A stretch of DNA of 64,000 bases from a virus (Duplodnaviria > Heunggongvirae > Uroviricota > Caudoviricetes), in the IMG/VR virus record IMGVR_UViG_3300032167_002310. One strand, 5' to 3'. The notes beneath the pieces are model-generated. The model was not told the DNA's origin and did not search any database. It worked only from the letters and a program-made list of their open reading frames with translations. Numbering within the stretch: position 1 is the stretch's first letter; every line of letters begins with the position of its first letter. Below, one piece after another: positions 15,833 through 29,881 of the stretch. The translations under genes were made by a program, and so were the position numbers.

Positions 15833-16624
15833 TTAGAAATGCCAATGATAATTGTCGTTACGACCTTCGGCGCGAGGGCCAGGCAAGTTAATGCATTTCT
15901 TGTGTTCATTTCTTGCATGACGCTGGCTCATATTACGCCAAGTATCGACATCGGGGATAATGTCCAGAAGCAGATAATCATCAATCTGGTCATAAGTTAC
16001 GCCCATATTGTCTTCATCAGTCTGACCAGTCATACCATCCGCAGGCGCCTTATCAACCAGGTGACGAGGGATTTCCTTCATCGCACGACCCATCATGAGA
16101 ACTTCACGAACAGTCAGCTCCTGGAACAGATGGAAGTCGCCGGCGAGATCGCCATACTTGGTGGTGTAACCAATCCAACCCTCGGACCAGTTACCAGTAT
16201 TGACTACACGACCTCCATAAATTGCTGCGATAGCATATAGAGTTACCATACGCATACGAGCAGGAACATTAGTGCGAACAGCAGGAATTTCGCAATCACC
16301 ACGACCCACGCAACCATAAAATGCATCAACTGCAGGCTCGATATTGATTTCATCATACTTGATACCAAGAGCCTCGCAGACTTCATAGGAATGCGCGATG
16401 TCTGCCTGAGTGCCACAAGGCATCAATACGCCGTGAACCCTGTCTGCGCCCAGTGCTCGGACAAGCAGGGCGGCCGCAATTGTAGAATCCTTACCGCCGG
16501 AAATACCGATGATAGCTTTGGTCTCGGGACCGGCATTCTTCACGAAATATTTACGAATCCACTCAACAGTGTATTCAATCTGATATTTGGGGTCAAATTC
16601 CCACTTTCTCTTATCCTTACCCAT
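15833..16624 (-). CDS. nadE: NH3-dependent NAD+ synthetase
   Basis: 263 aa; PP-loop IGISGGKDSTIAAAL, NadE-type C-terminal region. Confidence 0.85.
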   Translation of the reverse strand: MGKDKRKWEFDPKYQIEYTVEWIRKYFVKNAGPETKAIIGISGGKDSTIAAALLVRALGADRVHGVLMPCGTQADIAHSYEVCEALGIKYDEINIEPAVDAFYGCVGRGDCEIPAVRTNVPARMRMVTLYAIAAIYGGRVVNTGNWSEGWIGYTTKYGDLAGDFHLFQELTVREVLMMGRAMKEIPRHLVDKAPADGMTGQTDEDNMGVTYDQIDDYLLLDIIPDVDTWRNMSQRHARNEHKKCINLPGPRAEGRNDNYHWHF

Positions 16625-16625
16625 T

Positions 16626-17129
16626 TTACTTTCCTCCGTTATAATGAACGATATAGACTATATAGTCTTCATCAAAAACTTCTCGAATCATTGCTTCGAT
16701 TACATTCCAGTTTGCGCCACCGCGGTCACAGCCAATCAGATAAGGGAAACCGATTGTAGACCCCTTAGGAAGAACCTGCTTGAGATTATTCAAACAAATC
16801 CAAAACGCATCATAGGAAGTGTAACGCTTGCCATCATAACCATAGTTATTCTGTGCAAACATATTGCAGACATGTTGATGTTTAATGTCTTTCATAAAGT
16901 CCTCATACAGAGGAACGAGCTGAACATCACCAAGCATCATATTAACGCCCAATGTTACCATTGCATCATATTTTGCTCGATATGCATCATAAACTTGCGG
17001 GTAGGTATCGCGAATCTGCTTCGCGATACCAGACGCCATTTTACCCTGACAATTCACCTGATGGCAAATCACATCAAGATTCATGTCTTTCTGTACTTTG
17101 AGTAAGTCACCAGGCATATGAACTATCAT
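16626..17129 (-). CDS. macro-domain protein (ADP-ribose / O-acetyl-ADP-ribose processing)
   Basis: 167 aa; DVICHQVNCQGKMASGIAKQI resembling macro-domain N/G-rich ADP-ribose binding loop; embedded between nadE and NAMPT. Confidence 0.65.
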   Translation of the reverse strand: MIVHMPGDLLKVQKDMNLDVICHQVNCQGKMASGIAKQIRDTYPQVYDAYRAKYDAMVTLGVNMMLGDVQLVPLYEDFMKDIKHQHVCNMFAQNNYGYDGKRYTSYDAFWICLNNLKQVLPKGSTIGFPYLIGCDRGGANWNVIEAMIREVFDEDYIVYIVHYNGGK

Positions 17130-18601
17130 TAGTGTACCTCCGGATAAAGATTTGCACGAATCTGCTGGAAAGTCTGCAGATTGTAGTACTGACCATCCTT
17201 GTAGATAGTCTTCATAACAGTGAGATTGTCGTCAACCCACTCAGAGAAACCATCAATGCACTCGAAAGTGCCATCGGGATGCTTCTGAACCATGCAGCAA
17301 CCCTTCTGAGACTTCTTCAGTCCGCCAACGTCGGTCTTAGGGTCCTTGTAGATAGGAACTTCCTTACCACCGAAGACACCATAAGTAGCCTTCATAGCCA
17401 TGCCCCAAGTATCACGAGTCAGAACAGTGAACTTGTTGTCCGGGCTGAACAGAGCGTGGAAACAGAAAGCGCCAACGCCGAAGACCACATTAGTGGAAGC
17501 AAAGCCCAGTTTTTCGAGGGATTCATAAATCTGCTCAACGCGGTTCAGAGTGCAGCCATCGCCGTAAATCAGACCAATATGAGGGTCGAGGACCTTGTAA
17601 CCAGCAGCATTGATAGTGCCGCCAAAAACATCCCACAGCTTCTGGATAGTGCCAACGGAGATAGCAACCATGTCGCCGGAGTCAGGACGAATGAGCAGTT
17701 TGCCATTGTGGGCGAGAATTTCGTCCTTGCAAGCAGGAATGATATTGTTTACCATATTCCAGTAGTCATAGGTATCAGATACCATAGAGAAACTGGTATT
17801 AGGATAGATTTCAGTCAGCATACGCTTTACGAAAGTAATTTCATCACCATCGATTGCGTAGTTAGCAGCCATAACAGAGTGCTCAGTGGAAACGGCGCCA
17901 ATGCCAATCTTGTGCTCTGCACAGTTAGCATAGTAGTACTCGTCCAGATAAGGCAGAGCAGGAATGGTAGAAGTCTTATTGAAAGACAGGAGCCAAGAAG
18001 CAGAGCAACGAGTTGCATCTTCCAGGCAGCTCATGCCACGGAAACCGAAGTCAGCCATTGCCATATAAGGGTCGGCGCCAGGTGCGGTATGAGAATAGAA
18101 CTTCTCAGCAACCTTGTGGTACTCCCAACCTACGGTCGCATATGCGCACATAGGCCACACTTCAGTCTGAAGCAGGCACTCAAGCCACTGAATAACCCAG
18201 GCGAAACGAGGATGGGTATTGCGCATCTCAACCAGAGGAATTCCCATATTGATTACAGAACCCTCGGGAATTGCGCGGATTTCTACGGGCAGGTAGCCCA
18301 GTTCATGCAGTTCGACGATACGGTCTCGCGCCACATTGCCAAGACCAAGGTGGGCATCGATGTAATGGTCATATTCATACATAACCTGTTCGATGGTTTC
18401 ATAGAAGAACTCTTCAAAGCCCTTCTGCATATCCATAATGAAAGGCTGAATACCATAAACAACCATCTTAGGGAAGTTGTCATTCATTGCCTTTCGAGCA
18501 GTCAGATAAGATACCAGATACTCCTGGTTATCGGGATACATCAGAGGGTGGCACTGCTTATAAGAGTCACTGTACAGCATAATCATCTTACGAAAATTCA
18601 T
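17129..18601 (-). CDS. nadV: nicotinamide phosphoribosyltransferase (NAMPT/NadV)
   Basis: 490 aa; LYSDSYKQCHP N-terminus and overall length/pattern of NAMPT family. Confidence 0.85.
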   Translation of the reverse strand: MNFRKMIMLYSDSYKQCHPLMYPDNQEYLVSYLTARKAMNDNFPKMVVYGIQPFIMDMQKGFEEFFYETIEQVMYEYDHYIDAHLGLGNVARDRIVELHELGYLPVEIRAIPEGSVINMGIPLVEMRNTHPRFAWVIQWLECLLQTEVWPMCAYATVGWEYHKVAEKFYSHTAPGADPYMAMADFGFRGMSCLEDATRCSASWLLSFNKTSTIPALPYLDEYYYANCAEHKIGIGAVSTEHSVMAANYAIDGDEITFVKRMLTEIYPNTSFSMVSDTYDYWNMVNNIIPACKDEILAHNGKLLIRPDSGDMVAISVGTIQKLWDVFGGTINAAGYKVLDPHIGLIYGDGCTLNRVEQIYESLEKLGFASTNVVFGVGAFCFHALFSPDNKFTVLTRDTWGMAMKATYGVFGGKEVPIYKDPKTDVGGLKKSQKGCCMVQKHPDGTFECIDGFSEWVDDNLTVMKTIYKDGQYYNLQTFQQIRANLYPEVH

Positions 18602-18619
18602 ATCTTAAATCTCCTTTTC

Positions 18620-28648: not shown

Positions 28649-29116
28649 TTACATTAAATCTTGGAAAGTAAATTTTTCCTTACATTTTCCGCATATGCAA
28701 GTACCAACAGTACCAATAGATGTAGGTACAAATTCATATGTCCACATACCTCCAATCGCACCACCAGCCTGCAATCTCTTTTCCGAAGTATCAAGACCAT
28801 GCGCCTCGGCCATGTGAGTATCTTGCCACTCATGAATGCGGTCCCAGTCTGATTTGTCCAGACGGAACGAATAACCGAGCGACGAGCGCATCTCTGCAAT
28901 CTGGTCTGTTAGCTTCTGGATTTCTTTGTTTTCATAATGTTCGTCATGAAGACGCTCATTTTCTGCCTGAAGCCTATCATTTCTTGCTTTTTCAGCATGA
29001 AATAACTCTTTAATATTTGCGGTAAAGTCATCACAGGCTTCATCAACATCTTTTACCACCTGAATGCCCTTACCATTTACGAATTTCATATATTTCATAA
29101 AATTCCCTCCATACAA
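28649..29116 (-). CDS. hypothetical protein (155 aa)
   Basis: ORF with coiled-coil N-half and CICGKC motif. Confidence 0.4.
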   Translation of the reverse strand: MYGGNFMKYMKFVNGKGIQVVKDVDEACDDFTANIKELFHAEKARNDRLQAENERLHDEHYENKEIQKLTDQIAEMRSSLGYSFRLDKSDWDRIHEWQDTHMAEAHGLDTSEKRLQAGGAIGGMWTYEFVPTSIGTVGTCICGKCKEKFTFQDLM

Positions 29117-29141
29117 AAGAAAGGGGCCGAAGCCCCGTTTC

Positions 29142-29342
29142 TTAGTCGATGTCTCGAAGCTCCTTTTTGCGAATCTTCGCCATAATCTTTTTACGATTGT
29201 CGGTTCTCGCCGGAGCTGAACCCTTGCGGGCTTTATAGGTAGGACAGGTCTGGCACAGACCGTAGAACTCTGCGTCCTTACCTAAATCACAGTTGTGTGC
29301 GCATACATAATGGATGCACGGAAGCTCTCTTGTCTTTGCCAT
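29142..29342 (-). CDS. small Cys-rich protein (66 aa)
   Basis: CIHYVCAHNCDLG...CQTCPTYK. Confidence 0.35.
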   Translation of the reverse strand: MAKTRELPCIHYVCAHNCDLGKDAEFYGLCQTCPTYKARKGSAPARTDNRKKIMAKIRKKELRDID

Positions 29343-29353
29343 AATAATCCTCC

Positions 29354-29881
29354 TTAGTTCTTGCTTAACTTGTTGATAATTTCGCCTACAATCCAGTCAT
29401 AACCAGCCTTATCGCCAGTAGAGACCAAATAGTCGATACCCTCGTCTTCGAGCATCTGCTGAATTTCTCCAGCAATCTTGTCAGACTCCTCTTCAGTCTG
29501 GAAACGACCTACTGGGTTGTATTCCTTGGTTCTTACCAAAAAGAAGTTTTGACAATCGTAACTGTTCATAACATTGCGAACCATCTGATTAAACTCGTCG
29601 CCCAAAACAGGGTCGTTGTTATAAACTACAGATAACAGCAAAGGTGAGTCAGTTACAATTACATCTACCTTATCAGCACAGCGGCTGATACGGAAATACT
29701 GCTTACCAAAAATGTAAGCCTGGTTATTGAAAACCGCCTCACTCTCTTCCCAAACCTTATCCTTTGCGAACTCAGTTACAAGTTTGGCATTAAAGCCGAG
29801 CATTTTCAACTGAGAACAGATATAGGCGGCTCCGGTAGATTTACCAGTTCCGGGAGAGCCGAAAAGATTAACTAAAATCAT
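29354..29881 (-). CDS. P-loop kinase/ATPase (AAA_28 / NadR-kinase-like)
   Basis: 175 aa; LFGSPGTGKSTGAAYI Walker A; family resembles nicotinamide-riboside kinase-type P-loop proteins; fits NAD salvage context. Confidence 0.55.
   Translation of the reverse strand: MILVNLFGSPGTGKSTGAAYICSQLKMLGFNAKLVTEFAKDKVWEESEAVFNNQAYIFGKQYFRISRCADKVDVIVTDSPLLLSVVYNNDPVLGDEFNQMVRNVMNSYDCQNFFLVRTKEYNPVGRFQTEEESDKIAGEIQQMLEDEGIDYLVSTGDKAGYDWIVGEIINKLSKN

Follow-up and report, generated by a model that had tools for sequence, protein, structure and literature searches.

A candidate deamidating variant of NARP1-AP: a gut jumbo-phage gene module combining a pocket-altered Namat with nicotinamidase and NAD+ synthetase

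An NAD+ gene module in a gut jumbo phage

We analysed a 64,000-nucleotide stretch of the Caudoviricetes record IMGVR_UViG_3300032167_002310 (hereafter the window), which carries between positions 15833 and 29881 a set of genes related to nicotinamide adenine dinucleotide (NAD+) and ADP-ribose (ADPR). The window derives from the genome of a gut jumbo phage, and essentially all of its genes lie on the minus strand; besides the NAD+ genes it encodes gyrase A/B, RNase H, SH3-type endolysins, PhoH, sigma-70 and an RNA-repair set. A megablast search of the region found no near-identical GenBank phage, and the exact sequence of the window's transferase, Namat, has no record in the assemblies collection. 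The window's nearest relatives are found among IMG/VR contigs, of which one measures 402 kb. Genome contigs and metagenome-assembled genomes (MAGs) related to it derive for the most part from gut Clostridia (Lachnospiraceae, Roseburia, Ruminococcus, Agathobacter).

An initial annotation had read eight open reading frames (ORFs) of this region as a nicotinamide-to-NAD+ route with enzymes for ADP-ribosylation products, possibly directed against NAD-depleting defence. All eight are present on the minus strand at the coordinates given here and below. Seven score above the Pfam gathering score, and the NadE, Sir2 and NADAR assignments also pass curated NCBIfam cut-offs. The macro-domain ORF, on the other hand, has nothing in Pfam at E<0.01 and was recognised with PHROG and a profile of its homologs. 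The module proper consists of the following features, in the order of transcription:

21539-21591, minus strand: terminator hairpin and promoter upstream of PncA, start of unit 1
20932-21504, minus strand: PncA-type nicotinamidase, first gene of unit 1 (PF00857, 4.9e-24)
20751-20939, minus strand: small ORF of 62 aa between PncA and Adps, no Pfam match
19976-20749, minus strand: Adps, PRPS-like, 257 aa (PF14572, 6.5e-8, above the gathering score)
19443-19958, minus strand: predicted lipoprotein of 171 aa, last gene of unit 1, with a lipobox-like N-terminus in its translation
19377-19434, minus strand: terminator hairpin and promoter dividing unit 1 from unit 2
18620-19325, minus strand: two small ORFs (62 aa, and 178 aa Cys-rich) at the start of unit 2
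17129-18601, minus strand: Namat-family transferase (PF04095, 1.4e-27; NAMPT_N, 2.9e-9)
16626-17129, minus strand: macro-domain protein of the Poa1p/DarG/TARG1 class, Adpp-like (PHROG 335 'phosphatase', 4.5e-36)
15833-16624, minus strand: NH3-dependent NAD+ synthetase NadE, last gene of unit 2 (PF02540, 9e-51)
15795-15831, minus strand: terminator after NadE, end of unit 2

The module thus spans two adjoining transcription units, PncA–orf62–Adps–lipoprotein and orf62–orf178–Namat–macro–NadE. The Adps and Namat genes lie 1.4 kb apart on the same strand and are adjacent or nearly so in relatives, and the start of the macro gene overlaps the Namat stop codon. The unit boundaries are marked by a strongly conserved promoter motif, TTGATT-N14-TGnTATAAT with an AT-rich spacer, which occurs 26 times in the window, always on the minus strand (expected, 0.05). 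Near the module every promoter site is located directly 3' of a terminator hairpin. Sites of this motif include 15769-15797, 19377-19405, 21539-21567, 24431-24459 and 27134-27162. The phage also encodes a full-length RpoD-like sigma-70 factor with regions 1.1, 1.2, 2, 3 and 4 (32902-33927, minus strand).

The small ORFs of the module are less widely shared. The 62-aa ORF between PncA and Adps has a 46%-identical homolog at the same position in loci L004 and L005. The 178-aa Cys-rich ORF has its sole homolog in L003 (88% identity), and neither ORF of the pair at 18620-19325 matches Pfam or PHROG. The predicted lipoprotein, with no Pfam match and no homolog in the related loci, is a lineage-specific insertion.

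The "PRPP synthetase" and the "NAMPT" are a predicted Adps and a predicted Namat

NARP1 is a phage operon consisting of Adps and Namat (Osterman et al., 2024, bioRxiv 10.1101/2024.02.11.579819; structures in PMC12774641 and PMC13586617). The Adps of phage SPbetaL1 pyrophosphorylates ADPR and gives no product in an assay for Prs activity. We therefore compared both window proteins with the NARP1 proteins as well as with the enzymes of conventional salvage, which is based on phosphoribosyl pyrophosphate (PRPP).

The initial annotation had called the 257-aa protein a PRPP synthetase. Its PF14572 match agrees with that family, but at 100.7 bits it falls short of the 113-bit cut-off of the NCBI curated ribose-phosphate diphosphokinase model TIGR01251, and it is 38.8% identical over 95% of its length to the biochemically characterised SPbetaL1 Adps. 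Solved Prs structures were matched at best with E 8.9e-14, and PHROG 619 at 2.6e-64. Taking the catalytic and ADPR-contacting residues from the ICP1 Adps structures, we found Arg87, His121, Asp161, Lys185, Asp212 and Asp213 all kept in the window protein, and the aromatic residue at position 18' is Tyr. The ICP1-defined residues are also kept in 19 of 19 Adps partners of the Namat variants described below. Judged by these residues and its relatives, the "PRPP synthetase" is a predicted Adps.

The "NAMPT" likewise matches the expected Pfam families and belongs to another lineage within them. Against the SpβL1 Namat structures (9W5X/9W5W; PMC12774641) it reaches 340 bits, as opposed to about 180 bits for human and bacterial NAMPTs. 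Its identity is 36-39% to the Namats of phage NARP1 operons (SPbetaL1, Kayvirus, Felixounavirus) and 28-30% to KVP40-type Nampt, one such protein giving 28.5%. In a neighbour-joining tree it is sister to the Asp-type Namats and apart from KVP40-type Nampt. The "NAMPT" is, on this placement, a predicted Namat. With both assignments the nicotinamide-to-NAD+ chemistry through NAMPT and PRPP falls away, as the Namat and Adps lineages use ADPR, not PRPP, and need no nicotinamide mononucleotide adenylyltransferase (NMNAT).

Two residues beside the carboxamide distinguish a class of Namats

Seven residues form the nicotinamide pocket of SpβL1 Namat, in which Asp215 hydrogen-bonds nicotinamide and the D215A change lowers activity about 8-fold (PMC12774641). 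In human NAMPT specificity is set by the corresponding Asp219, and D219S switches substrate affinity (PMC7096376, PMC4919578). The window Namat has Lys209, Ser211 and Ser238 in its pocket, with Ser211 aligned to both SpβL1 Asp215 and human Asp219.

We grouped Namats at 85% identity into 20 clusters without Asp or Glu at position 215 (hereafter non-Asp) and 29 SpβL1-type clusters with Asp or Glu, leaving out KVP40-type Nampt as the outgroup. Only two of the seven pocket residues differ by class. Asp215 is replaced by Ser or Ala in all 20 non-Asp clusters, and Ala242 is replaced by Ser in 20/20 of these and in 0/29 of the SpβL1-type clusters. The neighbouring Gly213 is Lys, Asn or Arg in 19 of the 20. 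In keeping with a switched pocket, the classical nicotinate phosphoribosyltransferases encoded by phages G and Phosso have G(S/T)TSN at the remotely aligned motif. The remaining catalytic core, which forms the ribose-phosphate site, is invariant across both classes. The adenine-stacking Phe392 is kept in 20/20 non-Asp clusters and is Gly in KVP40-type Nampt. Identity inside the non-Asp group descends to 34%. A search of a large protein collection with the window Namat showed Lys/Ser/Ser in 120 of 120 close relatives among the matches listed (65-89% identity); no new lineages appeared among these matches.

A second region differs as well. The selectivity-clamp helix of the window Namat carries a 10-residue insertion (383-392) and reads GAFCFH[ALFSPDNKFT]VLTRD as compared with the motif GSXΦ1XΦ2XΦ3TRD, such that Φ1 and Φ2 are present and Φ3 is displaced.

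The altered pocket travels with PncA and NadE

The order PncA–Adps–Namat–(macro)–(NADAR)–NadE is found in locus L001, in phage Phass-1, in 177 IMG/VR loci and in 18 loci of bacterial genomes, and also in the GenBank contig MT835544.1, whose proteins are just 40-50% identical. Recurrence of the five core genes in one order, in 177 viral and 18 bacterial loci, shows that their clustering is not due to chance.

We compared 177 viral loci whose Namat is of the non-Asp class with 37 loci whose Namat has Asp or Glu. A PncA homolog is present in 173, NadE in 169 and the macro gene in 149 (84%) of the former, while among the latter PncA and NadE are both found in 0 and the macro gene in 4. The ten apparent exceptions are all loci that stop short of the expected gene position, and in 29 of the 37 Asp/Glu loci Namat is flanked on each side by 4 kb of sequence or more. 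By cluster, PncA and NadE accompany 20/20 non-Asp and 0/30 Asp/Glu clusters, the latter now including KVP40-type Nampt (Fisher 2e-14, uncorrected for phylogeny). Such statistics overstate independence, because the non-Asp Namats are essentially one clade plus Phass-1.

Phass-1 is informative in this respect. Its Namat has Arg/Ala/Ser at the three pocket positions, lacks the clamp insertion and branches outside the main non-Asp clade, and its locus has both PncA and NadE. It is therefore the pocket signature, not the insertion, that tracks PncA and NadE. Phass-1, an annotated gut phage, uses genetic code 15 and has a suppressor tRNA; its module (L215, OQ749652.1 96860-101298) adjoins the phage's own tRNA array. 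The module genes have been named piecemeal, NadE being annotated only as hypothetical, and the gene at the macro position encodes 139 aa with no Pfam match.

The operon also occurs in an ordinary chromosomal setting. In a Roseburia MAG (L234, 8627-13124) PncA–Adps–Namat(Ser)–NadE lies amid genes for subtilase, MatE, a chemotaxis receptor and YchF, and chromosomal contexts are likewise seen in L225, L226, L229, L231 and L236. In chromosomal Roseburia/Lachnospiraceae copies an NrtR-type regulator (Nudix plus NrtR winged helix) directly follows NadE. NrtR regulators respond to ADPR. These copies suggest a bacterial NAD-homeostasis operon that is shared with phages.

Finally, we searched the window and 241 loci for the enzymes of conventional routes. 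PncB was found in none of them and an NMNAT-like gene in just one locus, L006; no HxGH nucleotidyltransferase was found in the window.

PncA, NadE and the macro-domain protein

The best solved relatives of the window PncA are the nicotinamidases of P. horikoshii and M. tuberculosis. The alignment conserves the catalytic Asp/Lys/Cys and the metal-binding Asp/His/His, in keeping with the nicotinamidase-like isochorismatase proposed initially. NadE passes TIGR00552 with 166.7 bits (cut-off, 63.65).

The macro-domain protein resembles that of NARP1-AP, an Adps–Adpp–Namat operon whose Poa1p-like macro phosphatase Adpp converts ADPR-1''-phosphate to ADPR (bioRxiv 10.64898/2026.01.28.702374). With gp176 of Vibrio phage Ceto, encoded between Adps and Namat, it shares 31% identity (E 2e-13). 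A profile built from 15 homologs gave full-length matches to BT1257 (3e-23), DarG (4e-19), Poa1p (7e-19) and OARD1 (7e-14). As DarG, Poa1p and OARD1 all match, the sequence is compatible with a phosphatase, an O-acetyl-ADPR deacetylase and a DNA ADP-ribosyl glycohydrolase. We propose that the protein would convert ADPR-1''-phosphate and/or O-acetyl-ADPR to ADPR. With a phage sirtuin nearby, it could equally be an O-acetyl-ADPR deacetylase. The linkage to Adps and Namat in one operon favours the processing of small-molecule ADPR derivatives and disfavours an anti-DarT DNA ADP-ribosyl glycohydrolase, a candidate that we rejected in spite of the DarG match. Single-sequence AlphaFold models were of low confidence for this protein (pLDDT 42) and for the AAA_28 protein described below (pLDDT 39).

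A proposed deamidated route to NAD+

We hypothesize, with a probability of roughly 55%, that the module would be a deamidating variant of NARP1-AP that works via nicotinate. We infer every substrate and product, and the anti-defence role, from the gene families, gene order, covariation and residues observed above. In the proposed route, NAD-cleaving enzymes (defence NADases or the phage sirtuin) would release nicotinamide together with ADPR, ADPR-1''-phosphate or O-acetyl-ADPR. The macro-domain protein, joined by NADAR in some relatives, would trim the ADPR derivatives to free ADPR, which Adps would convert with ATP to the pyrophosphorylated form, ADPR-PP. PncA would in turn hydrolyse nicotinamide to nicotinate. 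The Namat variant (Asp215 to Ser, Ala242 to Ser) would then combine nicotinate and ADPR-PP to nicotinic acid adenine dinucleotide (NaAD), and NadE would amidate NaAD to NAD+. NMNAT, NadD and PncB would be unneeded, because the adenylate is already within ADPR. NaAD is the canonical substrate of NadE, and a route through NaAD would explain why NadE always accompanies this class of Namat and how the pathway can do without an adenylyltransferase. Phages G and Phosso act as a natural control that supports the route: they too encode PncA and NadE, yet they complete the synthesis with PncB and NadD/NMNAT and have no Adps.

ADPR probably serves as the backbone: the Adps residues and Phe392 are kept, 84% of the non-Asp loci carry the macro gene, and the chromosomal copies have an NrtR-type regulator. 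Whether the Ser/Ala-type Namat has a new activity, as a nicotinate:ADPR-PP transferase making NaAD directly and thereby defining a fourth, deamidated pathway of NAD+ reconstitution, we regard as evenly balanced. We would give equal odds for and against the related proposal that PncA–Adps–Namat*–NadE puts ADPR recycling in place of the PncB and NadD steps of the Preiss–Handler pathway. The core, NARP1-AP, is already known. The PncA/NadE-linked, pocket-switched form appears to be undescribed, widespread and abundant in human-gut phages; our literature search found no paper linking Namat or NARP1 with NadE, nicotinamidase or NaAD.

Several observations weigh against the nicotinate-based route. 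The substrates are deduced from two or three residue changes and gene context. Published work describes loss of activity in human D219A, and Ala is nonetheless the residue of a large subclade here. The alignment to the classical nicotinate phosphoribosyltransferases is remote (blastp E 0.019). The third clamp aromatic (Tyr396) is lost, with an insertion of 9-16 residues at its place, and the remodelled clamp could alter recognition of adenine or ADPR-PP. Since the non-Asp Namats amount to about one deep clade plus Phass-1, the covariation represents one or two evolutionary events, not 20. In L006 a NadM-type nucleotidyltransferase (9380-9958, plus strand; PF01467, GRFQTFHKGH) lies between Adps and Namat, the only such case in about 230 module-bearing loci. 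NadD and PncB may also lie elsewhere in the phage, the 64-kb window being part of a probably much larger genome.

These points bear on two rival chemistries. The module could be an ordinary NARP1-AP with helpers, in which Namat still makes NAD+ from nicotinamide and ADPR-PP, the pocket changes are lineage noise, and PncA and NadE boost the first and last steps of a host Preiss–Handler pathway (host PncB and NadD). The homology of the core to the experimentally proven NARP1-AP and the retention of both catalytic core and Phe392 agree with this, and in a single clade the covariation could be one historical accident. We nevertheless consider it unlikely: the altered residues are exactly the two beside the carboxamide and are invariant in a clade that diverges to 34%, loss of the Asp costs SpβL1 Namat most of its activity (the roughly 8-fold drop of D215A), and a nicotinamidase transcribed alongside would destroy the substrate of such a Namat. 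PncA and NadE are, moreover, absent from all 37 loci with Asp-type Namats and present, together with the pocket signature, on the separate Phass-1 branch. Less probable still is a PRPP-based deamidated salvage, the reading nearest to the initial annotation, in which the Prs-like protein makes PRPP, the Namat-like protein, as a nicotinate (or nicotinamide) phosphoribosyltransferase, makes nicotinic acid mononucleotide (NaMN) or nicotinamide mononucleotide (NMN), host NadD adenylates and phage NadE completes the route. It would suit the names of the Pfam and NCBIfam families (Prs and NadV/'nicotinate phosphoribosyltransferase'), the lost clamp aromatic, the L006 adenylyltransferase and the PRPP-dependent NMN synthesis that SpβL1 Namat keeps in vitro (PMC12774641). 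However, the Prs-like protein scores under the curated Prs cut-off and is far nearer to the characterised Adps, which yields no PRPP-type product, and Phe392 is retained where PRPP-using Nampts have Gly. ADPR-handling macro and NADAR genes lie in the operon and NrtR follows the chromosomal copies; phages with a real PRPP route have PncB and NadD and no Adps, and an adenylyltransferase accompanies the module in only 1 of about 230 loci.

The purpose of the module is a separate question. It may serve housekeeping, not counter-defence, by recycling nicotinamide and ADPR derivatives that the phage itself generates by consuming NAD (through the sirtuin, ADP-ribosylation and possibly an NAD-dependent ligase) and so sustaining the large infection of a jumbo phage with a borrowed Lachnospiraceae operon. 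We hold this to be doubtful, though the least improbable of the alternatives. The chromosomal Roseburia/Lachnospiraceae operons with their NrtR-type regulator speak for it, as do the CobB-type sirtuin encoded in the window, a gene that L004 and L005 have within the module, and the fact that in the window no gene for defence or anti-defence was identified next to the module. On the other side, the module is very widespread on viral contigs, and the homologous NARP1 and NARP1-AP operons are almost exclusively phage-borne and overcome Thoeris, DSR, SIR2-HerA, SEFIR and aRES experimentally (bioRxiv 10.1101/2024.02.11.579819; 10.64898/2026.01.28.702374). The initial suggestion of a counter to NAD-depleting defence thus gains from the proven activity of its homologs, while the chemistry proposed with it does not hold. 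Counter-defence and housekeeping roles can coexist.

Depletion of NAD+ is among the commonest bacterial strategies against phages, and NARP1 is the main known viral answer. If the nicotinate-based route is true, it would add a new reaction (nicotinate + ADPR-PP to NaAD) and a way to NAD+ without PRPP or an adenylyltransferase. It would also account for the otherwise orphan-looking NadE and nicotinamidase of many gut phages, and it would supply an annotation rule, Asp versus Ser/Ala at GT(D/S/A)T plus Ala/Ser at 242, which could re-annotate thousands of gut-metagenome genes now called 'nicotinamide/nicotinate phosphoribosyltransferase' or 'ribose-phosphate pyrophosphokinase'. The NrtR-adjacent chromosomal copies would then suggest that the recycling of ADPR to NAD+ is a normal part of Lachnospiraceae physiology.

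Neighbouring genes and genome context

Three further genes of the initial set lie outside the two units:

26327-27097, minus strand: CobB-type sirtuin in its own transcription unit (PF02146, 2.3e-52)
27709-28119, minus strand: NADAR-domain protein, putative ADP-ribosyl N-glycosidase (PF08719, 1e-25)
29354-29881, minus strand: AAA_28 / dNMP-kinase-like P-loop protein (PF13521, 1.8e-8)

The sirtuin, read from the promoter at 27134-27162 as Sir2–YqeY–Thg1–orf153, is genuine: it passes the NF001752 deacylase model with 276.7 bits (cut-off, 221), and the CPRC…CEC cysteines are present in its translation. The nicotinamide and O-acetyl-ADPR that it produces would enter the pathway. Its membership of the set is less firm: it lies within 10 kb of Namat in just 7 of 214 loci. 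In L004 and L005 it is inside the module. NADAR reaches 78 bits with TIGR02464 (cut-off, 73.7) and stands between macro and NadE, or directly after NadE, in 38 of the 177 non-Asp loci. For both Sir2 and NADAR the link to the module is loose.

NADAR belongs to a long unit that runs from RNase T through the AAA_28 gene and NADAR to an FNT-like gene. The AAA_28 protein, which the initial annotation had counted in the NAD set, has as its best family PHROG 2107 'thymidylate kinase' (6.5e-12), no solved relative, and a gene directly after NADAR only in L004, L005 and L219. We found no support for a NadR-type nicotinamide riboside kinase, the Pfam match being a generic AAA_28 one; a role in NAD metabolism is unsupported. 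The FNT-family membrane protein (178 aa, 27173-27709, minus strand; PF01226, 45.8 bits) lies between Sir2 and NADAR, and none of the related loci has a homolog of it. Channels of the FNT family transport small monocarboxylate anions, and uptake of nicotinate by this protein is conceivable.

Directly upstream of PncA, in a unit orf94–MVP, lies a full-length homolog of major vault protein (MVP; 830 aa, 21602-24094, minus strand; MVP_shoulder 9.8e-27, Vault_3 1.2e-7) with a C-terminal coiled coil. Homologs of 57-73% identity occupy the same position in L003, L004/L005 and L008, and MVPs of human-gut phages have already been published (bioRxiv 10.1101/2023.11.10.566534). Genes of RNA/tRNA-repair type are interleaved with the NAD genes (13577-15719, 24936-26367, 29909-32250 and 34031-34954, minus strand) and comprise a Thg1-like guanylyltransferase, YqeY, an RNA-ligase-like protein, an RNase T exonuclease, an AAA_33 kinase and three calcineurin-like phosphoesterases.

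Farther along, an array of 37 tRNA genes covers nearly every amino acid (41237-56574, minus strand). Small ORFs scattered inside it encode a PD-(D/E)XK nuclease (44710-45165), an nSTAND3/AAA ATPase (48716-49828) and a cREC_REC cyclic-phosphate receiver domain (55903-56256). A YcaO cyclodehydratase (1.7e-30) adjoins two weak radical-SAM-like proteins at 58049-63699 (minus strand), maybe a peptide-modification cluster. The window also encodes a 519-aa protein with DUF2828 and DUF7788 (38620-40179, minus strand) and a YspA/SLOG-family protein (PF10686; 36330-36704, minus strand). GC content is lower at both window ends (32-36% near 58049-63699 and 37-40% in the first 12 kb) than in the middle (40-49%).

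Comparison with known NAD+ systems

Among the known phage routes that rebuild NAD+, NARP2 consists of KVP40 Nampt with NMNAT/Nudix and NARP3 of PnuC with NadR (PMC13464706). The window shares with them a phage-encoded route of this kind and differs in its transferase, 28-30% identical to KVP40-type Nampt, and in that no NMNAT, NadR or PnuC was found in it. Canonical NAMPT plus PRPP synthetase salvage, or NARP2, does not describe the window, which lacks an NMNAT, has Ser in place of the pocket Asp and encodes a Prs-like protein below the Prs cut-off.

The jumbo phages with a Preiss–Handler pathway, Bacillus phage G (gp275/277/281/283) and Sinorhizobium phage Phosso (368/375/369/377), resemble the window in starting from a nicotinamidase, ending with NadE and passing through deamidated intermediates. 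In these phages nicotinamidase, PncB, NadD/NMNAT, NadE and a Nudix protein form one cluster (L241, 200123-207372 of phage G; L240, 268773-274414 of Phosso). They use a PncB-type enzyme with PRPP and NadD/NMNAT and have no Adps, whereas the window has Adps and the Namat variant; of the classical set it contains PncA and NadE, and PncB and NadD were not found in it. We rejected a NadV/Namat-type assignment for the phage G and Phosso phosphoribosyltransferases, which are classical PncB and only remotely alignable. Phage G also encodes a KptA/Tpt1 RNA 2'-phosphotransferase, an enzyme that generates ADPR-1''-2''-cyclic phosphate.

Closest to the window is NARP1-AP, with which it shares a Poa1p-like macro gene attached to Namat and homologous to that of the Ceto/Gary-type operons. 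The gene order is Namat–macro in the window and Adps–macro–Namat in NARP1-AP, and macro genes accompany 84% of the non-Asp modules as against 15% of published NARP1 operons and 4 of the 37 Asp/Glu loci. With NARP1 itself the module has in common closely spaced genes for a PRPS-like Adps and a Nampt-like Namat, with the catalytic core, the Adps contacts and Phe392 kept. It departs from NARP1 in its pocket (Asp215 to Ser, or Ala in sister lineages; Ala242 to Ser; Gly213 to Lys), in the insertion that replaces the third clamp aromatic, and in the nicotinamidase and NAD synthetase of its operon, which classical NARP1 has in 0 of 37 loci. Where the transferase of NARP1 makes NAD+, the predicted product here would be NaAD.

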